A stretch of DNA of 64,000 bases from Candidatus Latescibacterota bacterium (GTDB lineage: Bacteria; Latescibacterota; CBDEFO01), in contig CBDEFO010000008.1 in NCBI GenBank assembly GCA_965237525.1, positions 1-64,000 on the forward strand. Reading direction: 5' to 3'. Below the pieces are notes generated by a model. That model did no database searches and was not told the origin of the DNA. It saw only the letters and a program-made list of their open reading frames with translations. This document shows, piece by piece, positions 2,476-23,299 of this stretch. Made by a program: the position numbers and the translations under genes. Each line of letters starts with the position of its first letter. Position 1 is the first letter of the stretch.

Positions 2476-4611
2476 CTACTCCTGAGTCTCGTGAGGGGCT
2501 TCAGGGTTTGGTATTGCAGCCTCTGGTTCAGGAGATGAACCCCAGAGCTTAGAAATCTTTGACCAGTCAATTCCGCATTCTTTGGTCCCAGTCCAGGCAT
2601 CCCAAAAAGCCGGATCTGGCGAATGCGGGCGGTGGGCATCCGGGAGCTCCTGCACCTCCACAAGAAGCGGTGCCGGCGCTCCCCAGCCGAGAAGAATAGC
2701 CCGTCTAGAAGGGAGACTAGGCAGTTCGCGAAGGAGATCACCCAATCCATCCGGCACGAGCCGTTTCACCAAGTCTTGGTCTCGATCGTTGACGATGCGG
2801 TGCAACAGGAACGTGTTGCATTGGGAGAGAACGGTCGGCGATATTTCTGACGGGCGTTGAGAAGCCAGCACCAATCCGAGCCCGAATTTCCTTCCCTCCC
2901 GCGCAATTCGCTCAAACATCCGACAGCATGTTCTCCCGGCAGCCGCGGCCGTCTCGGATGTAAGCTCCCGGTGCACAAATGTGTGGGCCTCATCAAGCAC
3001 CAACACTGTGGGAAGTTCCGAGCCCGTTAACCTTCTGTGGCGTTGAACTGCTTCGAAGACCATGCGCGCTAACACGGCCACTACGACATGTACGGCCTCG
3101 GACGGGACAAGCGAGAGGTCCAGCACAGCTAGCGGACCGTTCGCAGCCTGGTCGGCGCCGACGTGATCCTTGAGCCACTCCTCCAGCGACGACGACGCTG
3201 CGTGACCAGGATCTGCGATTGACGCGAGAGGACCAGCCGCAAATAGGCCTCGAATTCTGAGGTTCAACGAGTCAACAGATGGGGAGACATCGCGTCCTGT
3301 AGCATCCGCGGCGAGTGCCTCCACGAACCCAGGCAGTTCCTGGACAGGGAAGAACTTCGGGGTATCCTCTCCGGAAATGAAGTCCTCATCGGACAGTCCC
3401 GCTTGCTGCGCCACTGCTTCCAGAGCTTGCTGAACTTTCCCAAGACTTACTTCCGCAAAGTCGTTGTGCCAAAAGCCTCCGTCTTGCTTTTCCTTGCCTC
3501 TTGCAGCTTCTTCAAGATTGCGCGAACAGTCGACGACTGTCTGTAGTAGATTCATATATAACGGGTCCTCGGAATCCCCAGCAAGTTCTTCGAAATCGGA
3601 CGCCAGATTGATCAACAGCTGAGCAACACCCTCTCGTAGTCCAGGTTGCAGGTGGTCGCCACTCTTAATTCTTAGCGACAGCGCAGTGCGATATCGACTT
3701 ACTCGTCCGCGAACCCGCGTTGCAAAGGCATCCGGTTCACCAGCGCCAGACCTTAGTCTTCGGATCGCGTCAAACAGGATCGGTCGTTGCACCCCCGGCG
3801 CAGCGCCGGTAAACGCAGACCATTCCTCTCCATTCCAAAGCCAAGCCGGTACCTTGAGTGCGCTTGCGGAGCCACTGCCCTCCACCTGAAATACACGTGG
3901 ACTAAGATCGCTGAATGCCCGAGCATACTCACCATTGGGGTCCAGAATGATGAATCTGGCATTCGGATCGCCGTTCTTACGTGCCTCTCGTGCGGCTTTG
4001 AGCGACCATCGAACCAATCCTGCTACCGTACAGGATTTTCCCGCCCCGGTATTGCCTAGCACGGCTAGGTGCCGGCCGAACAGCTTGTCCGGATCGACGT
4101 GGACGGGCGCGCCTCCCGCTGTCGGGCATACTCCAATCTGGATACGTCCACCGACATCGCCGCTCTCACCCTCAACCAGTGCGCGTAGCTGGACATCTGT
4201 CGGAAGCAACACGGGGTCACCTACCGACGGAAAAACATCAACCCCCCTTCGCACTTTGAATCCCAGGTCGTACGGCTCGCCTCGACACGTTGAAGTGAGT
4301 GTGCCGAGCGGCGTCAGCGTCACCAGCCGTGCTGGGAACGGCAAATCGATGAGGCCGAAGTCCTGCATCCCCTTGCGTTTCGGATATGGCAGTCGCTCGA
4401 CGCGCACTGAGGTGATTACACCAACGGTCGCGCCCGATTCGTTGGGAACCAATAGGTATCCGTTGATTCTTGGAAAGCCCGTTGGTGTCCCGGTGTTCAA
4501 CGCAGTGGCTTGTGGCGCGGAAGGGTCTACGAGTACGCTAATGGCGTTCGCGTTAACGCTCTCCACGACGCCGATGGCACGATCTCCTAGAACCTCGACG
4601 AGTGATCTCAT
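2476..4611 (-). CDS. herA: HerA/DUF87 ATPase (Sir2-HerA anti-phage system)
   Basis: N-terminal HAS-barrel-like region, HLAVLGNTGAGKS, LVLDEAH, IAREGRKFG, ASQRPSE. ATGA overlap with the upstream Sir2 gene. Confidence 0.9.
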   Translation of the reverse strand: MRSLVEVLGDRAIGVVESVNANAISVLVDPSAPQATALNTGTPTGFPRINGYLLVPNESGATVGVITSVRVERLPYPKRKGMQDFGLIDLPFPARLVTLTPLGTLTSTCRGEPYDLGFKVRRGVDVFPSVGDPVLLPTDVQLRALVEGESGDVGGRIQIGVCPTAGGAPVHVDPDKLFGRHLAVLGNTGAGKSCTVAGLVRWSLKAAREARKNGDPNARFIILDPNGEYARAFSDLSPRVFQVEGSGSASALKVPAWLWNGEEWSAFTGAAPGVQRPILFDAIRRLRSGAGEPDAFATRVRGRVSRYRTALSLRIKSGDHLQPGLREGVAQLLINLASDFEELAGDSEDPLYMNLLQTVVDCSRNLEEAARGKEKQDGGFWHNDFAEVSLGKVQQALEAVAQQAGLSDEDFISGEDTPKFFPVQELPGFVEALAADATGRDVSPSVDSLNLRIRGLFAAGPLASIADPGHAASSSLEEWLKDHVGADQAANGPLAVLDLSLVPSEAVHVVVAVLARMVFEAVQRHRRLTGSELPTVLVLDEAHTFVHRELTSETAAAAGRTCCRMFERIAREGRKFGLGLVLASQRPSEISPTVLSQCNTFLLHRIVNDRDQDLVKRLVPDGLGDLLRELPSLPSRRAILLGWGAPAPLLVEVQELPDAHRPHSPDPAFWDAWTGTKECGIDWSKISKLWGSSPEPEAAIPNPEAPHETQE

Positions 4612-5984
4612 ATGAGTGCGTCCCCCGGTGTAGCAGGTTGTGCGTCATCCTTGCCGTCTGATGACACTCTCGGATTTCGCCTATTAAGTAGCTCCACCAT
4701 CTTCCAGGTCGTACGGTCAATCGCCGGTTTAGGCAGATAGCGATCGACAAGCGTCGTGAGGTCACCGAAGTGTGGGCCGATGAGAAGCGTGGTTTGTTCG
4801 TTGCGTCCAACGCGGTCGCAGAATCCGGGGATCCTTCCTCCTGCGTCGTCAAATGAAAGGATGGCCAGGTGTGTCGACGGGATCGTCAGCATATCCCGCA
4901 GGATCCGATTGATGTGATCGTCACCGAATCCATATCCGTATGTCACAAGAACCGCGTTCGGCTGGCAGACGGCCGCTGCGAAATCCCGGAACAATTCCGC
5001 ATAGGGGTATTCAAGTGTTTCGACATCTTTCGCCGGATTCGGGTAGATCATGAATCCGTCAGTTGCACCCTTGGGCACTTCCGAATGGTCTTGTGCAGCA
5101 CCAAACGGAAGCGCCTTACGCACTATTCGGTCGTTCTGTCCTGCTTCACCGACTTGGCACCAGTCGATAGACCCATGAAGCTTTGTCAGACGAACCACAC
5201 CCTCAAGGTATCTGGGCTCCCCGCGGATGCCAGGCGGGTTGTAGTGCATGTCTATCCCAAGACGGGAAGCGCGGAACACAGGCTCGAGTTCCCCGACGAA
5301 TCGATCGATTACCCTCAACCCAAGGAGATCTGATCCAAATTCGACTAGACGATCGTAGTTTGTAGTGAAGATATGTAGTCTCTCTCTCGTCGCAGTACGG
5401 CTGGCGAAGGTCAGTAGGAAAGATCCAAGGAGGCGTCGCGCCCCTTGCGCGGCCGCGGTGTTTCCCTCAACCATCGAGCGTATCCCGGCCTCGGTCTCCA
5501 ACACCTGGCCAAGGAACGACACGAGCTTCCTCTCCAACGCCTTGGCCCAGACTTCATGCAGGGACCTGGCCTTCTTGACAAAATCATCATCACCCTTCTC
5601 CTCAGTCGAAAACACCGCAAGACCTTGGATCAACTCACGCGCCGCACGAATTGCATCTTCGATGTTTGGTTTCTCGCGCCCGCTCACTTTCGCACTCTTG
5701 GCCGCTGCCGCCAGGACGGCTTCGCTATATTCACCCTCCAATCCGTCCACGGACATATCAATTGCGGGTACGCACGTGTGATGAGCAATTGCAGTTGTTA
5801 GGCCGCCCCCAACCAGGAGATTGAGATGCTCTGCCTGAAGCAGTGCCGCAAGCCACGGCTCAATACGCTCCCGGTGCTGATTGACCCCGTCTTCATCTAG
5901 CTCTCCGGATTTGTAGAACTCATAGGAGCCAGCTCTTACCTTGTGGCAACTCCATTGCGTGGCGGCAACTTCTTCGCATGTCAT
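4608..5984 (-). CDS. SIR2-like (SIR2_2) NADase partner of HerA
   Basis: LLVGGGLT, IFTTNYD, KLHGSIDW and GYGFGDDHIN motifs; directly upstream of herA. Confidence 0.88.
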   Translation of the reverse strand: MTCEEVAATQWSCHKVRAGSYEFYKSGELDEDGVNQHRERIEPWLAALLQAEHLNLLVGGGLTTAIAHHTCVPAIDMSVDGLEGEYSEAVLAAAAKSAKVSGREKPNIEDAIRAARELIQGLAVFSTEEKGDDDFVKKARSLHEVWAKALERKLVSFLGQVLETEAGIRSMVEGNTAAAQGARRLLGSFLLTFASRTATRERLHIFTTNYDRLVEFGSDLLGLRVIDRFVGELEPVFRASRLGIDMHYNPPGIRGEPRYLEGVVRLTKLHGSIDWCQVGEAGQNDRIVRKALPFGAAQDHSEVPKGATDGFMIYPNPAKDVETLEYPYAELFRDFAAAVCQPNAVLVTYGYGFGDDHINRILRDMLTIPSTHLAILSFDDAGGRIPGFCDRVGRNEQTTLLIGPHFGDLTTLVDRYLPKPAIDRTTWKMVELLNRRNPRVSSDGKDDAQPATPGDALI

Positions 5985-8900: not shown

Positions 8901-8999
8901 GCTGGGATGTCCGTGGCGAATGGACTTCTCCCTGGCTGAGGCCTTGTTGATGGCATCCAGCGGCAAGGCGACTTCAATGAGTTTCTTCATGTGGGTCAC
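5987..8999 (-). CDS. DUF1156 amino-DNA methyltransferase, split by one frameshift near 7845
   Basis: [10 protein letters not shown]...[10 protein letters not shown]-terminus, motif I DPFAGGG, motif [10 protein letters not shown]. ORFs 7791..9017 and 5987..7828 join if one G is removed from a GGGG run. A GTG start overlaps the upstream TGA. Confidence 0.88.
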
Positions 9000-10279
9000 G
9001 ATCTCGCTTCCTTCCACAGGCGTACCAGGAAACGATCATCCTCTTCGATGAGGTCCGGCTCGGTGCCGTTGTGCGCGCGCATCCCAGCAATGATTTTGCG
9101 CGGCACTCCGAGGCCGGTGGCTTCGATGTAGCGGTAGTCGCGCAGCACCTCCTTGATCAGCTCGTTGCGCGAGGCGCGGTATCCGGCCCGCATCTTGTCG
9201 ACGGTGACCGTGTTCGGGAGGCGCCCGGGAGAGATGATCTCGATCCGGTCCATGTAGATGGAAAGCTCGATGTCGGTCACGGTGATGGTGTAGTCGCGGT
9301 GCGCGACCGCGTTGACCAGCGCTTCGCGCACGGCTTCGAGCGGGTAGTCCCAGCGCTCCAGGCGCCGCCCACCGTTCTCGATCCAGGCGGTCACTTCGAT
9401 GTTGCGGCGCACGAAGTCGAGGGCTTGCTCGATGACGCCCGCTTCAACGGCGTTGCCAGCCTCCGAAAAAGTGCGTGGAAGGGAGTAAAGCGGTTGCCCG
9501 GGATCGTCCGACAGGGCTGGAAACAGGGACACTGCGGGACCTCGCAGCGTCGCCCGGGACTTCGCGTCATAGTCCTTCTTGGTGCCGGAGTAGGCCACTG
9601 TGCTGATTCCGGCCTGGGGGAGGAAGCGGTTTGGCTTCAGGCCGAAGAGCAGCAGCCCGCCCGCGCTCGGCATCGGTCGGGCCTCGGCCATCAACTCGGT
9701 GTTGACCAGCAGGTGCAGCCAGGACTCGAGGTCCGTGTCCTCTGGAGCCCCCTGCTGGCGCAAGTCACGGAAGTAGTTCACCAGGCGTCGCAAGTCGAGG
9801 TCGTCGAACGTCGCGCCGGAAACTGGCTTGCGGTCGTACCGTAGGTGCCCGGACTGCATGTAGAGACGCGCTTCCTCTGGGTCCGTCGCATCGCGGGTGG
9901 TCGTGCCCACCCGAACCTGCGTCACCCACGCCGATCCGCGCTTGGCCTTGTAGGGTTTGTCCGGCGCGTCGGCGGGGAGCGAGATGACTCCGACGACGTT
10001 TCCGTCGTCCAGCTCCAGGGTCTCCCAGAACGGAATGGCCGCGGGGCGAAGGTGCACACGCGCGACCTCCATGATCCATTCCTCGACTTGCTTCGGTGCG
10101 CGGGCCAAACCCGTAACGTTACCGTCGTCTTCAACGCCGAGGAGGAGATGCCCTCCCTCTAGGTTCAGCAGCGCCGCCAACTCCTTGGCGAGTCGCTCAG
10201 GGACGACATCGTCACGCTTGAACTCGACGCCCGAGTTCTCGCCGTTGCGGATCAGCTCTTCCAGGTCGGTTCGGTTCAT
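8996..10279 (-). CDS. Schlafen/AlbA_2 domain + HATPase_c_4 (RecG C-terminal-like) protein
   Basis: [56 protein letters not shown]. Confidence 0.85.
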
Positions 10280-10290
10280 CGCACTGCTCC

Positions 10291-13005
10291 TCAGAACCCG
10301 TACTTCCGGCGCCGGCGCTCGAAGGCTTCCTTGCCGCCTTCAAGGATCTCCTCGACCAGCTCGCGCACGGGCTTGGCGTCGATCGAGCCCATGTGCTCGG
10401 GGGCGATGCGCGCGCGGCCGTGCTCGGCCTCGCCAGTGGCGGAAAGGCCGACGATCAGCTCGGCATCGCCGAGGACCGGGATGTTGGCGTTGTGGGTGGA
10501 GAAAAGGAACTGCCGGCGCTGCTTCTCCTCGCGCATGCGCGGGACGACGCCCTCGGTGATGAAGCGGTTGTCGAGATCGTCCTCCGGTTGATCGACGATG
10601 AGCGGCGCTTCGGACTCGAGCAGCAGCAGGAGCAGGACCGCGGTGGCCTTCTGGCCGGTGGAGAGGTCCTCGAGCGCCTGCCACGCCGGGGGATCCCCGG
10701 CGGGAGCCGTATTGAGTTGGATCGCGGTCGTCGGGGGCAGGTCGAGTTCCTCGACGTGCATCAGCACCTCGGGCTCAGCCTTGGCGAGGCGCTCGCCTTG
10801 GGCTGGCGTGATGCCGAACGTCCTGTTCAGCGCCTCCGCTCCGGAACGGCAGGCCTCGACGAACTGAGTGAGGGAGAGGTCGCGAACGCCCCGGAGACTT
10901 TCGATCGCTTCGGACAGTCGCCCGCCAACCTTATCCCGGAGGAGGTTGAACAGCGGCTCGCGGTCTCCGGCCGCGGTCACCTTCACCTGCACCCGGCCGC
11001 GGAGCTTCTTGTTGACTCCATTTGCCGCGCCATCCAGGCGTCGGAACTCCTGCGCCTTGAAGTCCTCCCACTCCGCCAGCAGGCTGCGGCGGCGGTCGGC
11101 GTGCTCCTTCTCGGTGCGCCGGGCCGAGGCCTGCCGCTCGCGCAGAGGCCGCAGCTCCTCGATCTGCCGCCGCAGGCGGATGAACTCCTCGCCGTCCACG
11201 CGCAACTTCTGCAGCTCGCGGAGGGTCTTCTCATAGACCTCTTGGACATCTTTCTTGCGCGTCTCCCACTCGGTGCGCACCAGGGCGACACCCTCGTCGG
11301 CGCGTGCCAGCGCCTGTTCCAGGTCCTTCGCGATTCGCTGGAGCTTGATGTCGAGCGTTTTGAAGACGCCGTTCAAGCGCTGAAGGATCTCCTTTCCGGG
11401 CAGATCCTCGATCGCCTTGGCGGAGAGGAACACGCGGTCCATCGGGACCTCGCGCTTCAGGGTCTCGAGACATTCGCGGAATGACGCGAGGCGCTCCGGG
11501 ATGGAGGCAAGCAGGCGCTCCTCGCGCACGAGCAGGCTCTGCTCCTTGAGCCGATCCTCGAGCCCGGCTTCACGAAAGTGATCCAGCGTCTCTTCGAGGC
11601 CCGGAAGCGCTGCCAGGCGCTCCTCGATCTGCGCCAACTCGGCGCGCGTGTCGAGCAGGCTCTTGCGGCTCTTCTCCAGCGTGCGGCGCAGGTCGGCCTT
11701 CTTGCGCGGAAGGTCGTCATCACGATCGACGAAGCGGTCGAGCAGGCGGGTCAGCTTCTCGCGGCTCCTGGTCAGCTCCGAGATCTCGTGCTGGCCGAAG
11801 ACCTCGACACGCGGCAGCACGTCCTGGGGCGAGAGATTGGACACCTCGCCATGATCGTCCCGGACCAGCGGCGGGTTCGGGATCGTTCGCTCGATGCGGT
11901 ACTCGCGAACCGCTGGGCGATGGGCGCGGACCAGGACTGAGATCTTGGTCCCGTTCTTTAGGACGTGGCGGATGATGCCCTCGTGGGCCCTGCGCGCCTC
12001 GTCGCCGATGGCCTCGAGGCCCAGCACCGTGCGGATGCTCTCGATCACGGTCGACTTGCCGGTCCCGCGGCCTCCGACCAGGACGTTGAGGTTCGGATTG
12101 AAGTGGATAGCGGCGCCGTCGAGGAATCCCCCCTCCCAGGCGAGCGCGACGAGCTCGGCGTGCTCCTCTGGCTCCAGCTTGCCTTCCCTGGGATTGAGGC
12201 GGATGCGCGAGCCGGGGTCCAGAAAGGCCTGGCGCAGCCCTTCGGTCGTCACCTCTGACATCTTGATCCAGCAGGTGGCCGAGCCATCGTCGAGGTCTTC
12301 GGGCTTAGCGATGTCTTTCGCGTTGATGACCGCGATGGCGAGCCCATCCTCTGCGGCAGGGTCACGCCGGTAGTCGGGGTTCGTGTTCTTCACGATTTGC
12401 TTCGCGTCGTGGGGCAAGTCGGCAACGAGGCCGGGAATCTGGATCGCCAGCAGGTCCCCACTCCGCCACGCCTGGATGCGCGCCTGACCGGTGAGGACCT
12501 TGAGCAGCCCCTTATCGTTGGTCACGTGGGCAGCAATCGCGACACCGCCCTGCTCGCGTACCTTGGCGAGGATGTCCACAAAGGCCTTGTCAGCCAACTT
12601 GGCCGATGGATTCGTGTCGGTGATGCCGAACCCGCCGAGGTAGCGCGCGAGGAGGTCGTCCGCGGTATCGGGGGCATAGATGCACAGAACGTGAATACCT
12701 TCGCTCGACGACAACTCGAAGCCGGGAAAGATGTGGATGCCACGTCCTTTGGCGGCGGCGCGGAACGCGGAGACGCCGCCGCCGTGGTTGTGGTCGGTGA
12801 TGGCGAGCACGGTGACGCCGAGGTCCGACGCTTTCCCAACGATCGCCCCGGCGTGATCGACAGCGTTGCTGGACGGTGCGTTACCCCGGTACGTGGAATC
12901 GTAGTGGTGAGGGTTCACCTGAAGCGCGCAACGATGGAACACCGCGCCGCTCGGGAGTTCCCTTGCCTTGGTGATCACATCATCGGCAGCCATGGGGCAC
13001 CTCAT
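10291..13005 (-). CDS. PHP-domain + SMC/ABC-type ATPase (Ppl/TrlF-like defence protein)
   Basis: AITDHN, PGFEL, IHVL and AAHV PHP motifs; GGRGTGKST, long coiled coil, LSTGQK signature, IVDQPEDDLD, STHN. Confidence 0.85.
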   Translation of the reverse strand: MRCPMAADDVITKARELPSGAVFHRCALQVNPHHYDSTYRGNAPSSNAVDHAGAIVGKASDLGVTVLAITDHNHGGGVSAFRAAAKGRGIHIFPGFELSSSEGIHVLCIYAPDTADDLLARYLGGFGITDTNPSAKLADKAFVDILAKVREQGGVAIAAHVTNDKGLLKVLTGQARIQAWRSGDLLAIQIPGLVADLPHDAKQIVKNTNPDYRRDPAAEDGLAIAVINAKDIAKPEDLDDGSATCWIKMSEVTTEGLRQAFLDPGSRIRLNPREGKLEPEEHAELVALAWEGGFLDGAAIHFNPNLNVLVGGRGTGKSTVIESIRTVLGLEAIGDEARRAHEGIIRHVLKNGTKISVLVRAHRPAVREYRIERTIPNPPLVRDDHGEVSNLSPQDVLPRVEVFGQHEISELTRSREKLTRLLDRFVDRDDDLPRKKADLRRTLEKSRKSLLDTRAELAQIEERLAALPGLEETLDHFREAGLEDRLKEQSLLVREERLLASIPERLASFRECLETLKREVPMDRVFLSAKAIEDLPGKEILQRLNGVFKTLDIKLQRIAKDLEQALARADEGVALVRTEWETRKKDVQEVYEKTLRELQKLRVDGEEFIRLRRQIEELRPLRERQASARRTEKEHADRRRSLLAEWEDFKAQEFRRLDGAANGVNKKLRGRVQVKVTAAGDREPLFNLLRDKVGGRLSEAIESLRGVRDLSLTQFVEACRSGAEALNRTFGITPAQGERLAKAEPEVLMHVEELDLPPTTAIQLNTAPAGDPPAWQALEDLSTGQKATAVLLLLLLESEAPLIVDQPEDDLDNRFITEGVVPRMREEKQRRQFLFSTHNANIPVLGDAELIVGLSATGEAEHGRARIAPEHMGSIDAKPVRELVEEILEGGKEAFERRRRKYGF

Positions 13006-13152
13006 GTTGGTACAGGGCGCTCGCTCGAAGCCTGTCGAGCCAGGACCGGATCGATTGCTTCCGGACTGATTCCTTGTTCATGGCATCGAGCGGGTGAGCG
13101 ACTTCGACGAACTTGCAATGCGAGTTAGTAATGGATGTGTCGTTGAAAATTC

Positions 13153-13237
13153 GCAGCGCTGACCTTAGCCTTCGCTGCATAACCCCGCTGGCGATAATAT
13201 CGCCAGCCTGACGCCCCGAAAGGGGCGTTTCTTTGTT
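13153..13237 (+). terminator. Three consecutive hairpins, the last resembling a plus-strand intrinsic terminator
   Basis: GCAGCG..CGCTGC (13153-13178), GCTGGCGAT-AAT-ATCGCCAGC (13187-13207), ACGCCCC-GAAA-GGGGCGT followed by TTCTTTGTT (13211-13237). Confidence 0.55.
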
Positions 13238-13245
13238 CCTTCCTC

Positions 13246-16200
13246 TCATGACGGCTTCCCCGCTCGCGCAAGTAACTCCGCGAAGTCGTAGTTCACACTG
13301 GCCACACCGAAATCCGGTTCACGCTGGAAAGGCTGACGAACGTAGTGGACTCGGTGGTCTGTTCCGTCAACGAACTCCACGATCCCGAGGATGTAGTCCT
13401 CGGGCTTGTTCAGTGAGTACAGAATCTCATTGCGCGTGATGGTGATCGTTGACGCGCCGCTGGTCCGGCCCTTGACCTCGATGAATCGGAGCTTGCCCGT
13501 ATCCGGCACGCGGCTTTCGATGTCGTACCCCCGTTTCTCGAACTCCCGGTCAGTCGGGTCAAATCCCAGATTCCGCTCGACTTCCATGATGATGTTGCGC
13601 GCCCGGGCGGCCGATTCCTGCGTATCAACGGCCGTTCTTGTGCCCGCCGATTCACGCCCACTCATTTCATCGATGAGCCCCTTGGGCACGACCAGCAATC
13701 CTCCCAGCACCACCGGTGGCAGAGGCGAGATTTGCGCCTCGAGCTTGAGTTCCTCAAGCCGTTTCTGGAGACGTGTTTGCAGCGTGTCCGCGCGCTTGCG
13801 GGCCTCACCTGAATTGAGCCTCGCTCCGGTCTTGCCCGCCTGCTCCTGCAGTTTGAGTTGCTCGGCTCGATGATCCCAGTAGGAGATCTCCTTTGTGAGA
13901 CGGTCCCTTACGGCTCCTTCGGTCTTGCTGATCAACGCCAACTTCGCCTCGCGCACCTCCGTCAAATGCTCCGGGACCACGTTCGCAACAGCGTAGCCCT
14001 GCGCTTTCTTTTCCACATCCCGGTCGATCCATGCGCACTGCGGCCGCTCGAGGATTTGTTCCAGACCGGGATCGTCGTCAGCGAGCGGGCGATAGTCGAG
14101 ATAGGGCGCATAGTGCACATGGCGGGTTACGCCATCCGCATCAAGTTCCACGTACAGCATGCGCTTGGAGATGATCCGACGATCCCCCGAGCGCGTCAGG
14201 CTCGCATCTTGGATCGCGTGCTCAAGATAGAAAAGCACGCGCGGCTTGTTGCCCTCGTCACGCTCGTCGACCAACACAGCGCCCCGTTTCAAGAGATCCC
14301 GGTGTCGTTCCAGCGTCAGGTCGATGACCGCATCCAGCAATGGGTGCCCGGGACACACAAACGCCGCCAGCGGTTGCCCATGGGGCGCCACCAAAGATTT
14401 CTCAAAGGCAACGCGCTCGTACCGGGGAAGGACCGGTTGTCCAATACCAATCAATCGATCTCGATTCCGAACGGGTGCGGGAACGTGGGTGATCTCGTAG
14501 CGCCGATCCTCACGCTGCTTGGCTGAACCGCCCAGGCGTTGAAACGCCGCCTGAAAGAACGACTCGATGTAGTGAGGTTGTAGACGGCGGGCTTCGGCCC
14601 GCTCCATTTCCTCACGTACTCGGTACACTCTGCTCGCGTCCATGGCGTCGTGCGCGAGGGCGCGCTCTTCCAGCAGGTCCTGGAGCCTGACGCGGTCCAG
14701 GGCATGATCGACCGCCGTCGTGAGGCGCGCTCGAACCTCCGGTTGTTCCCCGTAGCGGATTGCCTCGATCAGGAGCTTGCGAAGGGGCCGCCCCTCGAAG
14801 TGGAGCTTGCCGAGCACATCGAACACCTGCCCGCCGAGGGTTTCCCGCGCCTGCTCCAGCTTGTCGAGGAGCTTGCGATAGACGTCGCCCTCTCTTGTTT
14901 CATCCGCGACGAGGTTCCAGAGGTGACACACTTCCGTCTGGCCGATGCGGTGAATCCGACCGAACCGCTGCTCCAATCGGTTGGGGTTCCATGGCAGATC
15001 GTAATTCACCATCAGGTGGGCGCGTTGGAGGTTGATGCCTTCGCCGGCCGCATCCGTGGCGAGCAGCACCTGCACGTGCGGGTCGTGGCGGAAGGCTTCC
15101 TGGGCCTTGAGTCGGTCCTCGCGGCCCATGCCGCCATGAATCAGAACAACCGACTCCTCACGTCCCAGCAAGGTCGTGATGCGCCCGTGCAGGTAACGCA
15201 GCGTATCCCGGTGCTCGGTGAAAATGACCAGTTTTTGCTTCGGAGACGAGGTCGGTCGGGGAATATCGCCGGCGCCGTAGGGAACGTCCGCGTCCCGGAC
15301 CTCTTCCACGATTTGCCCGGAAGTCCCTCCCGCCGTGAAGATTCCACCGAGCAGGCTTGCCAGCTCTCGCCATTTGGTGTCCGTGCCGCTCCGCCGCACT
15401 TCAAGCGCAAGACCTTCCAGATTCTTGAGCGTCTCAATCTCAGCCTTCAGCTCGGCGATGGATCGCGCCGCCGTCGCCCGGTCGAGAATTTCCTCCTCGG
15501 CCGCCTCGTCCAGGTCCTCGACATCTTCAGGGTCAAGATCCGGTCCCGCGGCGGGAAATGCGATGGCGGCCTGGCCACCACGCTGCAGCACCTCGAGCTC
15601 ACGCAACCGGCTCTCCAGCCGCTCACGGCGGCGGCGCAACGACTGATAGATGGCCTCAGGAGAAGAGGCGAGTCGGCGCTGCAGAATCGTCAGGGCGAAG
15701 CCGACGGTGCCCGCTCGCTGGTCGTTCTCGAGTGCCTCCGCACGGTTGAATTCCTCGCGCACGTAATCGGTGACGACCTTGTAAAGGTGGGCTTCCGCTT
15801 CTGAGAGCTTGTAGGGGACCGTGTGCGCAATGCGCTCCGGGAACAGCGGCGTGCCGTCGAACTTGAGCAGATTCTCTTTCACCATGCGGCGCATCAGGTC
15901 AGAGACATCGGCGACATGAACGCCATCGCGAAAGCGCCCCTCGAATCGATCCCCGTCGATGAGCGCCATGAAGAGCTGAAAGTCTTCCTCTTTCCCGTTG
16001 TGCGGAGTGGCCGTCATCAGCAGGAAATGGCGGGTGAGACTCGACAGCAGTTGCCCCAGCCGGTAGCGTTTCGTGTACTTGACCTCACCACCAAAGAACG
16101 TCGCCGACATCTTGTGGGCCTCGTCGCACACGACGAGATCCCAGCGGCAATCCGGAGCTTGCAGCTTCTGCTGAACGTCCTTGTTGCGGGAGAGCTTGTC

Positions 16201-17033: not shown

Positions 17034-17378
17034 TCAGGTGGGGATGCCGTCATCTCGGTCGTCCGCCATCACCAGGCTCCCTGCGGCTGCTGGTTGTGGC
17101 TCGTAGCGCTCGACGTTGATCTCATCCTCGCGTGCTTGCGCCTGGGCTACGTCGTAGGCCGCTTGCAACCGGATCCAGGTCTCCGTCGTAGAACCGAAGG
17201 CCTTCGCAAGGCGGACTGCCATGTCGGCTGAAATACGGGTGTGGCAATTCACCAGGCTCGAGAGTGCCTGGCGACTGACGCCCAGGACTTTCGCCCCTTC
17301 GGTGACGTTGAGACCGAGCGGCTCCAGACAGGACACACGCACCACCTTGCCGGGGTGTGGCGGGTTCTTCATAGGCAT
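17034..17378 (-). CDS. higA: HigA-family antitoxin (XRE HTH)
   Basis: MKNPPHPG...LGVSRQALS.LVN...ISADMAVRLAKAFG...WIRLQAAYD. Confidence 0.9.
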   Translation of the reverse strand: MPMKNPPHPGKVVRVSCLEPLGLNVTEGAKVLGVSRQALSSLVNCHTRISADMAVRLAKAFGSTTETWIRLQAAYDVAQAQAREDEINVERYEPQPAAAGSLVMADDRDDGIPT

Positions 17379-17394: not shown

Positions 17395-17520
17395 TTAGTG
17401 GTAGTCGATCAGTTCGACGTCATAGACGTCCTCGCCTGCGAAGCGGGAAATGATGCGCCAGTTGGCTTTCACGGTCACTGCCCAATAACCTTTCAGCTTG
17501 CCTTTGAGGGGATGCCCCAG
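17395..17520 (-). pseudogene. higB: 3' half of a HigB/RelE toxin
   Basis: Manual translation: HPLKGKLKGYWAVTVKANWRIISRFAGEDVYDVELIDYH*. No 5' half is present. Confidence 0.85.
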
Positions 17521-17762
17521 TCATCGAGAGCCGCCGCTAACGCGGTGGAGCCAAGGATATCGGCGAGGTCCGCTCCCTTGTTACGAGCGATCACTTGGTC
17601 AAGGGTGGCTTGCCCATGCAGGATGTCCGCGATGTCCTCCTGGAACATGGCAACGTCCCAAGGCTGTACCAGATAAACCATTCGCCTCTTCGAGTTGACC
17701 TGCGACTTCTCGATTACACAATCCATTTCATGAAGGCGTTGCCGGATTTCTCCAATGTCCAT
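17493..17762 (-). CDS. Hypothetical protein (89 aa) abutting the higB remnant
   Basis: ATG-started ORF with plausible composition; no recognised motif. Confidence 0.4.
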   Translation of the reverse strand: MDIGEIRQRLHEMDCVIEKSQVNSKRRMVYLVQPWDVAMFQEDIADILHGQATLDQVIARNKGADLADILGSTALAAALDDWGIPSKAS

Positions 17763-17799
17763 CTACAAATACTACCGCAGGACAAGCCCGTGACCACAG

Positions 17800-18075
17800 T
17801 GAAAGTGAGAGAAAGTCAGGGTGACCAGACCGTTGTTGTTCAGGATCTTCATGGATCGTGATCGACGATATCCTTCGGCCCTCCAGGGCCAACATCGCCG
17901 CCAGCCAATTGCAGCCATAGGCTAGATTTTCCAGCACCAACTGCTGGATCTGCAACACCGTCTCGGGCGGGGTTGTCTGGGGATGGCTCTGGTGGGTTAG
18001 CGGCGGGTCCTTCAGACCCTCAAATCCATGGGTCTGAAAGCGCCGCTTCCACTCACAACAGCTGCTCCGATCCAA
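17800..18075 (-). pseudogene. IS481-like transposase N-terminal HTH remnant
   Basis: WKRRFQTHGFEGLKD.P....SHPQTTPPETV..I..L.LE...YGC..LAAMLALEGRRISSITI. Confidence 0.7.
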
Positions 18076-18155
18076 TCCTCACTAACGACATGCCTCGGCA
18101 ACGTTCCCAACTCGTGTACCAATTTGAGAACGGTCACCTATTGAAGGCTTTCACC

Positions 18156-18353
18156 TCAGGATTTCTTCTGGCCTTCCTCCCAGAGGCGCGCGGCTTCTTC
18201 CGTGGTTATGCGGCCGACTTGTTCGATGTGACCTGCGGGCCATTTCTGCTGATGTTCCTGTTCGCGACGATCGAGGTCGTTCGTGATCCCGCTATGAACG
18301 ATCCTGTTTCCGACCTTGAAATGATACTTTTTCGTGTCTCGCTTGGCTCCCAT
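18156..18353 (-). CDS. Minimal GIY-YIG-like protein (65 aa)
   Basis: KYHFK...VHSGITNDLDRREQEH...ARLWE fits Y..(Y)IG.T.DL.RR..EH...E. Starts 3 nt after the E1 stop. Confidence 0.7.
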   Translation of the reverse strand: MGAKRDTKKYHFKVGNRIVHSGITNDLDRREQEHQQKWPAGHIEQVGRITTEEAARLWEEGQKKS

Positions 18354-18356
18354 CTG

Positions 18357-19748
18357 TTACTCCTTTGGTTGTAGTGGTTGTAGGTATTCCGGTATCTGAG
18401 AAATAATATACCGTTCGATATCGGCTTCATCTCCTTTGTCAGCCACAACACACTGAATGCAGCCCTCTCTCTTGAGGACGCGTGTTGGCACGGTCCACTG
18501 CGCCGACATGCGACCGGTTCCCAGGGCATCCAGATCCGTCCGGTAATTCACGGGCCGGAGAGCTGACACATAGACAGCAAATTCCGTAACAGCGGCGTTA
18601 ACTGCCGTACCGTTGAGTGAGACCACCGAGGGAGTCGGTACATCTATCCCTTCGATGTATCCGCGACCTCGGCGAAATTCCTGTTCCTCGGGAGGTGCAA
18701 GAAAATAGCTTGCTTCATCACGGTCGATCAGGCCGATGCAGTTGAGGCACGGCCCGCCAGGAATCACAGCGGCTACTTGACTTCCGGCCTCCGAGACGGT
18801 GCCGTCCGACGCATTGATCCCGACTCCGATGTCGAAGTATGGAATCCGGTAGGCCAGCGCCAACTCATTCAGGATAAGGCGTGCTCCGTCGTTGTCGACG
18901 CACCCGAATATCACATCGACACCCTTCAGTTTGTCGAGTGCCTGTCGGCAGCGTAGATTCTCTTGAAGTGCATCGACATGCGAGGTTGGCGCGACGCTTT
19001 TGACAAGACGGCGTGCCAGGATAACCTTCGGGGTCCCAATGTCCGCTGCAGTGGCTGTCACGAGGCGATTCATATTGGTGCTGTCCGCGAGGTCGAAGTC
19101 GATCACCAGGAAGTTCCGCACACCCATGAATACAAGCGCCTGAACCGCCTGCGAGCCTGTTCCGCCAGCGCCGACTACAGCGACTCTTGTGCGTCCAAGC
19201 TGACGCTGACCAGCTTCGGTAAACCAAACAACTTGGCGGGAGAAAGACGGATCGATCGGATCCTCGTTATGGGACACAACCTGAGCAAGGCGATCACCTG
19301 CGGCGGTAATACTATCGATGGTTCCGGTTCTCCCAGCTTCGAAGAAAAATTCTCCGTAGACGGTGTCGTCGCCCCAGACAGTCACCCCGTAGGGTCGCCC
19401 AGGCAGCGAGTCCAGAACGTACGGTACAAAGTCCTGAAATCCTTTCCGATCGGTCCCGGAGAATCGGGGCATGCGCCCGCTATGATTGTGGGCCTCGATC
19501 AAGGTTGACCTTAACCGCACGGCCTTGTTCACAATGTTGATCAATGCGCTGGTCTCGACTTCCCATCCGCTAGGGGTGACTCTTACGTCTCTGTTTGCAA
19601 TCAGGGAGATGTCGGTCACTATGAAGACAGGCTGTCCGGATGAAAGCGCCCACCTAGCGTGCAGGAACGCGAAGTGTTCCCCTGGGGTCGAGTAAAGGTG
19701 GCCCAGGATAGCTCTCCACTGGACTTGGTTAAGGCGGATCGTGGCCAC
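18357..19748 (-). CDS. JAB/JAMM peptidase + ThiF/E1 adenylyltransferase fusion
   Basis: JAMM motif HNH-x7-SGTD; FSRQ arginine finger, VVGAGGTGS, DSTNMNRL, GCVDN, and two CxxC motifs (PCLNC, GCIQC). Confidence 0.9.
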   Translation of the reverse strand: MATIRLNQVQWRAILGHLYSTPGEHFAFLHARWALSSGQPVFIVTDISLIANRDVRVTPSGWEVETSALINIVNKAVRLRSTLIEAHNHSGRMPRFSGTDRKGFQDFVPYVLDSLPGRPYGVTVWGDDTVYGEFFFEAGRTGTIDSITAAGDRLAQVVSHNEDPIDPSFSRQVVWFTEAGQRQLGRTRVAVVGAGGTGSQAVQALVFMGVRNFLVIDFDLADSTNMNRLVTATAADIGTPKVILARRLVKSVAPTSHVDALQENLRCRQALDKLKGVDVIFGCVDNDGARLILNELALAYRIPYFDIGVGINASDGTVSEAGSQVAAVIPGGPCLNCIGLIDRDEASYFLAPPEEQEFRRGRGYIEGIDVPTPSVVSLNGTAVNAAVTEFAVYVSALRPVNYRTDLDALGTGRMSAQWTVPTRVLKREGCIQCVVADKGDEADIERYIISQIPEYLQPLQPKE

Positions 19749-20131
19749 TAGTTGACCTCCGAAAGGCGATGTCGGACACCCTCCAGGAAGGTGAGGAGGT
19801 TATGGCCCAGACGGTAATCACCGTGAGGCTGCCAGTCTTCGACGTGGTAGGAGAATTGGAGCCACTGGCGTCCGATCTGTTCGACAGGACCGCTGCTGGC
19901 TCCCGGCTACTGACCGTTCTTTAGTCGAAGCGCCGGGTCGACATAGAAATTGTCCGGCGGGATTGTTGGGTATCCGGACGGAATCAGGATGAGCGTATCC
20001 GTGGCGTCCAGGCTCCACCCTCGTGGCAGGACGAGCCTCGTCAGGGTAAACCAATCAAGATTCGATCCGACTTCAAGCTTGGGGTGAGCCGCCTTGACGA
20101 GCTGAATTTCCTTCTGTCGTCGTTCTCGCAT
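19748..20131 (-). pseudogene. Prokaryotic E2 (family E-like), 127 codons with an in-frame TAG at 19907-19909
   Basis: LPRGWS...LILIPSGYPTIPPDNFYVDPALRL; the same frame continues past TAG as PGASSGPVEQIGRQWLQFSYHVEDWQPHGDYRLGHNLLTFLEGVRHRLSEVN*. Its stop overlaps the E1 GTG start. Confidence 0.85.
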
Positions 20132-20134
20132 GGT

Positions 20135-20398
20135 TCAACCCCTCTTGAATCTCGGAGCTTTCTTGAAGTGCTCCTTCGACTTGAGTTCAACCACCTCGTC
20201 CGGCGATAGCTGCTTCTGGCTTCCGTCCTCAAAGATCTGGACCAGGCCCGTCTCACGAGGAATTCTGGCTAAGTCCATGATTTCTCCAGCCGTAATTTTT
20301 GGTTCGTCGACGTGGAATTCCTTGCCATCTACGAAGAACGTAAAGACAGGCCCATGCCCGCCGTTCGGTCGATCTGGTTTCTTTTCAGTCATTTCCAT
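20135..20398 (-). CDS. Ubiquitin-like (multi-ubiquitin family) beta-grasp protein
   Basis: FTFFVDGKEFHVDEPKITAGEIMDLARIP...LSPDEVVEL...EHF; ends in an exposed tail APRFKRG; first gene upstream of E2 and E1. Confidence 0.82.
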   Translation of the reverse strand: MEMTEKKPDRPNGGHGPVFTFFVDGKEFHVDEPKITAGEIMDLARIPRETGLVQIFEDGSQKQLSPDEVVELKSKEHFKKAPRFKRG

Positions 20399-20439
20399 TC
20401 GCTACTTCCTTTCTCGTTCAGCTGCAAGCTTGCCATTAA

Positions 20440-20497
20440 CAAGCAGAACGCTTTAAATAGTAAGCAAAATCGCTGGAATTGTCAAGCGTTCTGCTTG
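20440..20497 (-). promoter_or_regulatory. Sigma70 promoter of the Ubl operon flanked by a 14-bp inverted-repeat operator
   Basis: Minus strand TTGACA (20485-20480), 17 nt, TACTAT (20462-20457). CAAGCAGAACGCTT (20440-20453) and AAGCGTTCTGCTTG (20484-20497) are perfect reverse complements. Confidence 0.8.
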
Positions 20498-20531
20498 ATT
20501 TTTCTAAGAAACAATGAGAACCTACTGTTGA

Positions 20532-20879
20532 ATGAGTGATTTATCGCAAGAATTATCACGATTGTGCAAACTGAGAGGAACGACCCTTCGCGCAGTCGAG
20601 GAAGGGACCGGGGTCTCGAACGCGTATTTGTCGCAGCTCGAGAACGGGTCGGTCAAGAGACCGCGTCCCCACGTCCTGCACAAGCTTGCGGACTTTTACG
20701 ATGTCGCGTACGAAGACTTGATGACCGCAGCCGGCTATCTGTCTCGCAATGACGAAAACCGGCCTGTTGATCCAGAACTGGTTGAGATCCAGCTGATGAG
20801 CGCGGGTCTCAGCAATCGGCAGAAGAAGGAATTGAAAAGATTCATACGCTTCTTGCAGCAGTCGCAGGAGGAAGATTGA
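20532..20879 (+). CDS. XRE-family HTH repressor (CapH/ImmR-like)
   Basis: TLRAVEEGTGVSNAYLSQLENG...P....LHKLADFYDV. Confidence 0.9.
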   Translation: MSDLSQELSRLCKLRGTTLRAVEEGTGVSNAYLSQLENGSVKRPRPHVLHKLADFYDVAYEDLMTAAGYLSRNDENRPVDPELVEIQLMSAGLSNRQKKELKRFIRFLQQSQEED

Positions 20880-20931
20880 GCGTTTACACGAGCAGAAGTG
20901 TCATCCTCCCCGTCCGGAGAGCGCAGACGTA

Positions 20932-21795
20932 GTGTCAGATTACGCCAGGAGGGCGTTGCGGGCCGCGGATGCCATTGGCCAACTTCCTACGCCGATCGAC
21001 GATCTTCTGGCAGCCGCTGAGATTGGAAACCTGCAGATCGACGAAGAAGTCAAGCAGAGTTTTTCCGCTCGACTCATCGGTGCCGCAAGGCAAGAGTTCG
21101 ATTCGATGTGGCAGAAGATTCGCGGGATTGCTGATCTTCGAGAACGCGTAACCTACGTCGATGAGAACACCACCCAGCCCAGAATCCGATTTGCTAAGGG
21201 ACACGAACTTGGCCATGAAGTGCTGCCGTGTCACCATCTGGATCCGGGTTGCTTCGACGACGAGAAGAGCCTGACCTGGGAGGCCGAGGAAATTTTCGAC
21301 ATGGAGGCGAATTTTTTCTCGGCAGAAGTGATATTTCAGGGCAGCAATTTCACCCGAATTGTTCGAGACTACACCGTTAGTTTCGACTCCATCTTCCATC
21401 TTGCAGACATCCACGGGGCCTCTCGTCACGCTACTGCTTGGCGTTATGTCGAAGAACAGGACGAATCTGTTGCGCTCGTGATGTATTGGCCCAGCAAGTT
21501 CAATTCCGAAATTCTTCGCCGGGGTAAGGTTGTTGCATCGTCAAATTTCCTTCGCAAATTCAGCGAGATCGATCTGCCGCGCCAGCTGGATCCAGGCCAT
21601 GATTGGATGACTACCCATGCTTCCAACCTCATTTACGGCGATATGATTTCACTGACCTGCGGCAAAGTTACGTTCCGGTTCGAATGGGAAGCTTGGTGGA
21701 ACGGATACGGACTGTTGGTGATGCTGCGGCGCAAACCGAAGCTTCACTTTGTCCGGCATCTCGCGGACAAAGTCACAGTGGCTTCTAGCAGATAG
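20932..21795 (+). CDS. ImmA/IrrE-family Zn metallopeptidase (CapP-like)
   Basis: RFAKGHELGH (HExxH) and EANFFSAE. The true start may be TTG at 20876 with a C missing in a C-run near 20908. Confidence 0.88.
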   Translation: MSDYARRALRAADAIGQLPTPIDDLLAAAEIGNLQIDEEVKQSFSARLIGAARQEFDSMWQKIRGIADLRERVTYVDENTTQPRIRFAKGHELGHEVLPCHHLDPGCFDDEKSLTWEAEEIFDMEANFFSAEVIFQGSNFTRIVRDYTVSFDSIFHLADIHGASRHATAWRYVEEQDESVALVMYWPSKFNSEILRRGKVVASSNFLRKFSEIDLPRQLDPGHDWMTTHASNLIYGDMISLTCGKVTFRFEWEAWWNGYGLLVMLRRKPKLHFVRHLADKVTVASSR

Positions 21796-21931
21796 GCTGT
21801 CCAGTTCCGCTTCGCAGGTAAAGCCGATCTTGGTAACCGCGCCGCGCCGAGGATATCTGTTCCCGATAAGCCGCGTGAGAGGCCCACACGGCCGCACGAT
21901 AGAATGGGGCTAGGGGGGACCACATTCTGAC

Positions 21932-22756
21932 ATGGCAAGACGAATAACGCTGTCCCAATGGAAAAGCAAGGTGCGCCAAGCTCAGCAGAAGAAGCGCCAA
22001 GCGATTGACAAATACAATCGTGAGGTAAATGCCTACAACGCGCGTGTTCGAGCCGACAGACAGCGGCTCAGGAATGAACTCGCACGGCTCAGCCGTCAAG
22101 CGGCAACAGCACGCTTTGCTACCTTCAGGACATCGTTCAACGTAGTTCATACAGCGTACGAACGGCTCGAACAAGCAGCAATAGGACACCGTTTTGATGC
22201 GCGTCACAACGAGATCCTTGATCTCGCGGAGCGAGAGGCCGCCAACAACGCGGGTTTGATGAACGCGATCTTGGGCGATTTGGATGCGTCCAGCCAAACA
22301 CCGGCGAACCCGTCCGATAGCCCGCTGACTCCAATCCTTCACGCGATATCTGCCGATTTCAGCGACCGTTGGCGGCGCGCGCTCTTTTCTTTAAACCCGC
22401 TCAACCCCGATGCAGCGCGCCACTTTTGTTCTAGCACCCGAGAGATCATCGCAGGAATTCTGGATACTAAAGCACCTGACGCTACCGTTGCTGCCGCCAT
22501 GCCTGCCTGCGACCGTACACCTTTGGGGACACCGACGCGCCGCGCCAAGATTCGCTACTTTCTTCACAATAATGGGATGTGTCAGGACGAGCTTGAAGAT
22601 TTCGTCGAGGCCGACATGAACAACGTTGTTGAGCTGTTTGATGTGTTCAATAAGGGCACCCACGGTTCCGCCGGGAAATTCAACCTGTCTCAGCTTCAGG
22701 CGATTCGCAAGCGGGCCGAAGACGGCATCATGTTCCTTTCCAGCCTAGTGATCTAA
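21932..22756 (+). CDS. Coiled-coil + predicted pPIWI-associating nuclease (pP_pnuc_1-like) protein
   Basis: Basic coiled-coil N-terminus; ALFSLNPLNPDAARHFCSSTREII, PTRRAKIRY, FNKGTHG. Confidence 0.6.
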   Translation: MARRITLSQWKSKVRQAQQKKRQAIDKYNREVNAYNARVRADRQRLRNELARLSRQAATARFATFRTSFNVVHTAYERLEQAAIGHRFDARHNEILDLAEREAANNAGLMNAILGDLDASSQTPANPSDSPLTPILHAISADFSDRWRRALFSLNPLNPDAARHFCSSTREIIAGILDTKAPDATVAAAMPACDRTPLGTPTRRAKIRYFLHNNGMCQDELEDFVEADMNNVVELFDVFNKGTHGSAGKFNLSQLQAIRKRAEDGIMFLSSLVI

Positions 22757-22960
22757 AAAGCGGGCTGACGAAGGTAATCGCTTCGGGCCTACCATCGGAC
22801 TCCGGGTGGTCGAGTTCAACCGGGAACCCAATGTCCCATTTTTCCTCTCAGATTGAGATGCGCACGATGATATTGCGGATGACGGTCTTGTGCCGGCGGT
22901 CGTAGAGGCGAGTGGTGCGGGGGGCGACGTGGCCGGCGATAACGCCGGACGCGAAGGCGT

Positions 22961-23160
22961 TTCAGTTCATCCAGGACAGACGACCGTCGAGAACGGCGAC
23001 AGTTCGCTGATGGTGCGGTTCAAGGCAGGTGGAATCGAGGAAATGTGCTGGCACCTCGTGACCTGGGGAGGGAGCGTCACGGTCGAACGGCCGGCCGGAT
23101 TTCGCCGGCGACTGGCCGAAATGTACGCCGCGCTCGCGGTTAACCATCGCGCCGAGTGTT
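22961..23160 (+). pseudogene. C-terminal (WCX) fragment of a WYL-domain regulator
   Basis: HPGQTTVENGDSSLMVRFKAGGIEEMCWHLVTWGGSVTVERP; no HTH or WYL core upstream. Confidence 0.65.
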
Positions 23161-23299
23161 CCGATCAAGAAACCCGATCCTGATTACAAGCATCAGCGGC
23201 AGAGCGGCTCGACTGAAGGATATGCGACGACCGCAGGTGCCTCAACCGCCGGATCACGGCAGAGAATCTGCGATGTTTGCACGCGCATCGAGGATGCGG

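Follow-up and report, generated by a model that had tools for sequence, protein, structure and literature searches.

Bacterial operons for the conjugation of ubiquitin-like proteins (Ubl) have been described under the names Bil and Bub. Bil requires catalytic cysteines (PMC10557695; 10.1101/2022.05.11.491447), and in the Bub system of Citrobacter a catalytic tyrosine and a catalytic serine carry the Ubl as oxyesters, while BubE removes the conjugates and the JAB domain mainly cuts the BubAB precursor (Ye et al., 10.1101/2024.11.21.623953). BubE is present in all the Bub operons described in the latter work, in which CapH together with CapP occurs in 168 of 544 operons, and Types I and II are the only ones named in passages of two further works (10.1101/2024.11.21.623966; PMC13373217). 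The published catalogue lists DUF6527-containing operons, as its table states (PMC11601596 Table S1), and in the work of Iyer et al. the metal-binding gene is likewise part of the 6e class (PMC1779556). The subject of the present work is an operon found in a stretch of 64,000 nucleotides (nt) from Candidatus Latescibacterota bacterium (assembly GCA_965237525.1, contig CBDEFO010000008.1, positions 1 to 64,000; hereafter the window), encoding a Ubl, an E2, a JAB-E1 fusion and a protein of 65 amino acids (aa). Taken as a whole, it is rather probable that this is a Type I Bub-like operon belonging to a lineage without bubE, likely induced by DNA damage and likely inactivated in its E2 gene, with the small GIY-YIG gene and a neighbouring pP_pnuc gene as likely passengers.

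The locus comprises seven genes, four on the minus and three on the plus strand (Table 1). An earlier note, made from the DNA letters alone, had described four tightly coupled genes facing away from a repressor, a peptidase and a putative nuclease, and the positions and gaps obtained from open reading frames (ORFs) and Pfam agree with it: 3 nt separate the Ubl and E2 genes, the E2 and JAB-E1 genes overlap by 1 nt, the 65-aa ORF follows JAB-E1 after 3 nt, and upstream of each of these four genes lies a purine-rich stretch similar to a ribosome site. Among the profile checks proposed in that note, Multi_ubiq, Prok-E2_E and ThiF gave matches, M78 a weak one and the GIY-YIG model of Pfam none; HTH_3 and pP_pnuc_1 complete the Pfam matches at the locus, the latter identifying the putative nuclease of the divergent arm.

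Judged by sequence comparison and predicted structure, the core is Type I Bub-like, the type exemplified by the Citrobacter operon BubAB-BubCD-BubE (6E.1/DUF6527). The best solved match of JAB-E1 by sequence is Citrobacter BubCD, and Foldseek relates its predicted model (predicted local distance difference test, pLDDT, 90.9) to the same protein with a template-modelling (TM) score of 0.71 and an E of 2.6e-34. The JAB site is complete, E24, H87, H89, S97 and D100 falling in invariant columns of the alignment, and the E1 part contains GxGxxG at 193, R228, two zinc-type pairs (C334/C337 and C430/C433) and, in a crossover loop without cysteine, Y364, which aligns with the catalytic Y370 of BubCD. 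Similarly, the best PDB match of the E2 is Citrobacter BubB, whose Ser-x-His and Asp align with S94, H96 and D60 of a protein lacking cysteine, the reading frame being interrupted before S94. The Ubl carries its C-terminal glycine immediately before the stop codon, and close relatives end alike. Gene content, catalytic residues and predicted fold are directly observed, and shared with Type I Bub are the JAB-E1 fusion, the crossover-loop tyrosine, the lack of a catalytic cysteine, the Ser-x-His and Asp of the E2, the Multi_ubiq Ubl, CapH and CapP upstream and the placement in a defence island. In Type I Bub the Ubl is usually fused to the E2; the window Ubl is separate, as it also is in 31 catalogued Type I operons, and retains the conserved C-terminal glycine. 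The differences are that it ends at this glycine and that bubE is absent from the window. Furthermore, the window E1 keeps both CxxC pairs, the first of which is replaced in Citrobacter BubCD, whose clade has none; other bubE-bearing lineages keep them as the window E1 does.

Type I/II Bil (BilABCD) has the order Ubl, E2, JAB, E1 without a DUF6527 gene and a four-cysteine zinc site in its E1 (PMC10557695), and some of the relatives found here share its four-gene layout. Bil, nevertheless, works through cysteine thioesters and an E1 of IAD-AAD-CYS architecture, while the window has a single adenylation domain with tyrosine. Membership in Bil was rejected on the grounds that the E2 and the E1 loop have no cysteine, that the N-terminus of the E1 is a JAB domain and that neither BilB nor BilD was among the PDB matches; the Bub-like character proposed in the earlier note is borne out by the matches to BubCD and BubB and by the aligned tyrosine and Ser-His-Asp residues. 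Type II Bub (BubA, BubBD, BubE) shares the standalone Ubl and the Tyr and Ser chemistry, but differs in its E2-E1 fusion, in having no JAB and in the presence of bubE, none of which is the case in the window.

The Bub assignment therefore fits apart from bubE, the lack of which had gone unremarked in the earlier note. PF20137 (DUF6527) gave no match at E 0.1 in the genome itself, which is 96.6% complete, with a positive control, and a BubE profile made in this analysis had no match within the window locus. This directly observed lack is a real point of difference from published Bub. Relatives came from a pattern scan (25 loci), from an E1-profile search of 1,516 genomes and from 7 of 16 plasmid matches. 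Of the 24 genomes that contain the closest loci, 1 had PF20137, at a distance of 1.3 Mb from the operon; among 50 further genomes it lay next to the E1 in 17, which shows that bubE is found by the search when it is present. After 13 duplicate or fragmentary rows were dropped, 81 non-redundant E1 rows remained: 23 with bubE, 45 (window included) with an E2 and no bubE, and 13 with neither. The loop tyrosine is present in 44 of the 45 bubE-less E1s, the remaining one not having been parsed. Because the published catalogue was built from DUF6527, operons of this kind could not be listed in it, and no bubE-less Bub type was found in the literature covered, the journal version of Ye et al. and most subscription papers lying outside this search. 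Since the operon would work like Type I Bub and has no bubE, it is filed as a variant of that type.

It could be argued that this is an ordinary Type I operon which lost bubE recently, during decay, the 65-aa gene occupying its place and the bubE-less relatives being remnants or assembly gaps. The damaged state of the locus, with a stop codon in E2, a +1 insertion close to codon 363 of the E1 among other alleles and many amino-acid changes between copies, is in keeping with such a loss, as is the occurrence of the same split Ubl, E2 and JAB-E1 layout, accompanied by bubE, in 31 of 139 catalogued Type I operons (part 1 of 7; PMC11601596 Table S1). Such a loss is nonetheless unlikely in view of the 44 other E2-E1 operons without bubE, which come from bacteria and archaea, have mostly open frames and conserved catalytic residues, include the complete genomes of Nitrospira moscoviensis and Methanocella MCL-LM, and group together on the tree. 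In a careful tree of 54 rows, from which 27 long-branch, E2-less or near-duplicate rows were left out, the bubE state changes twice: one clade is canonical and has bubE (99/97), another combines the kinase with bubE (99/99), and the remainder is bubE-less. The window falls in a starred bubE-less clade of 8 rows (98/92), inside a bubE-less group of 30 rows, and a quick tree built from all 81 rows gives the same picture. Taken alone, a Bub subtype without bubE is accepted here with moderate confidence.

As regards the JAB domain, the separate Ubls found in bubE-less operons end in glycine and stop in 19 of 22 cases, with an intact JAB motif in 18 of those 19 operons; where bubE is present, 2 of 14 separate Ubls have this ending. 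Kin are not independent in these counts, to which several loci contributed no detected Ubl. When the Ubl already ends at its glycine the JAB has no precursor to process and, as BubE is missing too, we infer that in bubE-less operons the JAB domain is likely the deconjugase. Were the copy intact, the CapP-like peptidase would respond to single-stranded DNA by cleaving the CapH-like repressor, and this would open the promoter between the two arms, by analogy with CapH/CapP of CBASS (antiphage signalling based on cyclic oligonucleotides). With a chemistry taken from Citrobacter Bub, the E1 would then adenylate the ready C-terminal glycine of the Ubl, carry it as a Tyr364 oxyester and pass it on to Ser94 of the E2. 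Needing no E3, the E2 would join it to lysines on its targets, most likely phage or stress proteins, and the intact JAB domain would take the tag off again.

Several points weigh against the reading of a bubE-less lineage whose JAB removes the tag. Support for the wider bubE-less group is only moderate (94/91 with 30 rows, 87/89 with 33), the E1 search profile was built from bubE-less relatives, with kin that are not independent, most genomes are incomplete metagenome-assembled genomes, and four bubE-less loci have less than 1.2 kb of contig after the E1; for these reasons the counts speak for existence, not for frequency. The part of BubE could also be played by a host protease, or by a BubE that has diverged too far for the Pfam model to detect. 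Moreover, the JAB of Citrobacter BubCD does not stop conjugates from building up, which argues against the JAB as an efficient deconjugase, and none of the Bub operons tried gave phage protection (10.1101/2024.11.21.623953), nor is such protection shown in passages of PMC13373217.

The relatives also differ among themselves in ways of their own. A loop-tyrosine E1 is paired with an E2 having cysteine in place of the catalytic serine in Methanocella and its phylum (L010, L013, L018, L167, L169-L172), as well as in L107, L121, L138, L143, L144 and L147; going by the residues, these pairs represent a possible mixed oxyester-thioester relay, archaea included. In plasmids of Deinococcus, Rhizobium, Bradyrhizobium and Mesorhizobium (L129-L131, L134) and in L137, a kinase-like gene of about 480 aa (TCAD9/APH) stands between JAB-E1 and bubE, and this kinase-bearing Type I Bub variant forms a clade of its own on the tree. 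Otherwise the genes downstream of the E1 vary without pattern; they include one that looks proteasome-subunit-like by eye and has no Pfam match (L006:6884-7708), and a TIR protein and DUF2188 (among L023:5847-6668 and L153:2395-2631). Upstream of the operon in L006, a HATPase gene pair (3235-4740) may be CapK/CapS-like.

The copy present in the window carries a TAG in its E2 gene. A second copy of the operon, at the start of contig C4, is 98.5% identical over the operon and has a sense codon at E2 position 75 and several indels; the C4 and C8 copies, overlapping at the contig ends, would be two alleles of one island. Public contigs contain the TAG in runs X1, X2 and X3, which come from two samples and two studies (X1 being possibly the source), and a sense codon in X5, at a depth below 5. 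In X2, X3 and X5 there is a +1 insertion close to codon 363 of the E1, immediately ahead of the tyrosine, the two lesions not being phased by these contigs. It is very improbable that the locus is active, the TAG being read through or an assembly error: the sense codon in C4 and X5 favours this, together with other frameshifts in the assembly that were not checked against reads, yet the codon recurs in the contigs of all three runs named above, 664 of 2023 long ORFs in the genome end in TAG, which is thus a normal stop, and ARAGORN listed no tRNA with a CUA anticodon there. Assembly error and recoding are accordingly disfavoured, the stop codon is real, and as a consequence this copy is likely dead, the operon of this strain having likely been inactivated by the E2 stop. 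When the two copies are compared, the 65-aa gene has 8 amino-acid changes and 0 silent ones, and a part of the E1 has 8 and 5, respectively, small numbers that are as expected of relaxed selection.

The XRE gene and the gene of an M78 peptidase with an HExxH motif are divergent from the operon and lie beside its candidate promoter; PADLOC identified them as capH and capP, in line with the regulation suggested in the earlier note. As in CBASS and Bub, a divergent XRE gene is thus combined with an M78 peptidase, but in the window pP_pnuc_1 follows the regulators. Of the first 25 loci, at least 8 have XRE and/or M78 genes adjoining the operon (counted over the genes picked for scanning), which fits the DNA-damage induction reported for CapH/CapP (10.1101/2022.04.27.489752), so that the operon is, by analogy, likely induced in this way. 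Between the arms, 2 sigma-70-like sites were found against 2.5 expected, the match being suggestive by position only, and the inverted-repeat pattern, which was derived from the site itself, gave 3 matches against 0.61 expected, a number reached in 6 of 100 shuffles; neither clearly exceeds chance. The candidate operator pattern was in no other fetched locus, L015 having loose look-alikes only. In runs X1, X2 and X4, deeper-covered capH/capP relatives about 90% identical to window positions 20500-21900 have other flanks, which suggests a regulator module that swaps cargo.

The GIY-YIG identity of the 65-aa protein (mini-GIY), proposed in the earlier note, holds by predicted fold and by its Atlas neighbours, labelled GIY-YIG at 0.98; no Pfam (PF01541 at E 0.1 included), PADLOC or NCBIfam model matched it. 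Its model (pLDDT 83.5) resembles in fold UvrC, I-TevI, PD-T4-3 and Slx1: Foldseek ranks 1-6 are UvrC, none below E 0.001, and VIA-align scores are modest (PD-T4-3 Z 5.4; I-TevI Z 5.2, root-mean-square deviation 2.6, 60 aligned). The family comprises 136 homologues of 64-113 aa, which conserve Y10, G22, R29, H34 and E59, the Tyr, Gly, Arg, His and Glu shared with GIY-YIG nucleases (the UvrC N-domain, I-TevI, Slx1, PD-T4-3); at what we take to be the second tyrosine of the GIY-YIG motif it has a histidine. It differs from those nucleases in its small size and in having no targeting domain and no Pfam model, and is regarded as a putative nuclease.

That the mini-GIY or pP_pnuc may be the substrate or effector of the operon, Ubl conjugation switching a nuclease on or off after DNA damage, was the proposal of the earlier note, which considered the GIY-YIG gene dedicated to the operon. 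Speaking for it, and against a passenger role, are the 3-nt junction with the E1 gene, the ribosome site of its own, the presence of the gene in both genome copies and a fold with conserved catalytic-type residues; in addition, other lineages carry accessory genes, such as the kinase, in the slot behind the E1, and a different, 116-aa GIY-YIG-like gene without a Pfam match overlaps the stop of the close JAB-E1 relative in L002 (7379-7726). When their profiles were compared, the mini-GIY family and the L002 gene gave no alignment, so the two are not shown to be kin. The synteny survey, however, found no mini-GIY adjoining another E1 homologue: the family had no match in the 25 E1 loci, stood at the operon in 0 of 70 E1-bearing genomes and occurred elsewhere in 5 of 71. 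Conversely, among the best 80 of 306 metagenome loci of the mini-GIY (66 distinct contexts; 300 nt or more of upstream sequence in 71 loci), 0 matched Ubl, E2, JAB or BubE profiles and 2 gave a weak E1 match, one of these having an E2-E1 fusion and a JAB-like gene of another kind 447 nt downstream. Its neighbours, in a scan of 93 of 129 candidates, are assorted defence and regulatory genes (CBASS, Shedu, PD-T7-1, methylases, toxin-antitoxin genes, XRE/M78, LexA), and its copies, as said above, differ by amino-acid changes alone. As for pP_pnuc, it was in 0 of the 25 E1 loci and in 1 of 71 genomes, on another contig, thus beside the operon in 0 of 71. Neither nuclease gene is conserved beside related operons, an unlinked state observed directly and the very outcome that the earlier note had named as refuting its proposal; both were rejected as partners, a substrate or effector role is quite improbable, and both genes are likely passengers.

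The mini-GIY is frequently located immediately ahead of genes of CBASS, Shedu or PD-T7-1, or next to a regulator of the XRE/M78 or LexA kind, and its occurrences among L026-L105 (e.g. L040, L068, L076, L089, L092) depict a putative roaming defence-island gene without a Pfam model, on which nothing was found in the literature searched, most subscription papers being outside that search.

A bolder account would join these elements into a third Bub subtype without BubE, distributed over bacteria and archaea, with the JAB as sole deconjugase, a Tyr-E1/Cys-E2 pair in some members and small GIY-YIG nucleases captured twice (window and L002) in a plug-in effector slot after the E1, under Ubl control after DNA damage; in this complete form we think it quite unlikely.

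Table 1. Coordinates of the features of the locus in the window, with their support
Feature	Position	Strand	Support
65-aa minimal GIY-YIG-fold protein, likely passenger	18156..18353	-	Predicted fold; Atlas neighbours
BubCD-like JAB-E1 fusion, 463 aa	18357..19748	-	ThiF E 4e-37; PDB BubCD E 7.6e-24
BubB-like E2, broken by in-frame TAG at codon 75	19748..20131	-	Prok-E2_E E 1.4e-15
Nonsense codon TAG, E2 codon 75	19907..19909	-	Sense codon in C4 copy and run X5
BubA-like Ubl, 87 aa, one beta-grasp domain	20135..20398	-	Multi_ubiq PF14452 E 8.7e-9
Inverted repeat with perfect 14-nt arms, one on either side of the promoter match; candidate repressor sites	20440..20497	.	Pattern match
Candidate sigma-70-like promoter, 10/12 match, into the Ubl gene	20457..20485	-	Pattern match
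CapH-like XRE repressor	20532..20879	+	HTH_3 E 9e-11; PADLOC capH E 5e-8
CapP-like M78 peptidase, HELGH motif at 91	20932..21795	+	PADLOC capP E 1.2e-20; Pfam M78 weak, E 0.004
pP_pnuc_1 predicted nuclease, neighbour outside the conserved unit	21932..22756	+	PF18165 E 1.3e-41

The island surrounding the operon was identified by PADLOC as Hma (hmaA/B/C) with SIR2-HerA and a Ppl-like gene inside, which agrees with the defence-island setting recognized earlier. The Hma island with SIR2-HerA occurs twice, at contig ends (window 1-25300 and G000:C4:1-16500). C4 lacks both the additional genes that the window has at about 8996-13247 (AlbA-like, Ppl-like) and the transposase-like remnant at 17397-18140; hmaB and hmaC, which are split in the window, have open frames in C4. 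A HigA-like antitoxin gene, with no toxin gene seen alongside, lies at window 17034-17378, and in C4 it follows the mini-GIY immediately. At window 22890-23183 there is an isolated WCX fragment from a WYL-type regulator. The same-genus genome G025 gave no match for E1, mini-GIY or pP_pnuc.

The Bub-type core, its chemistry and the link between CapH/CapP and Bub are already published; the point of difference is the group of operons without bubE. With its window copy broken and its nuclease neighbours looking incidental, the locus itself is of limited interest. The group is of wider significance, in that a catalogue based on DUF6527 misses a branch reaching archaea and that a three-gene version of Bub without BubE would be the smallest test system for Bub. 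Without the BubE brake conjugates should build up, which may ease the capture of targets, and an operon of this kind lets deconjugation by the JAB domain be tested directly.

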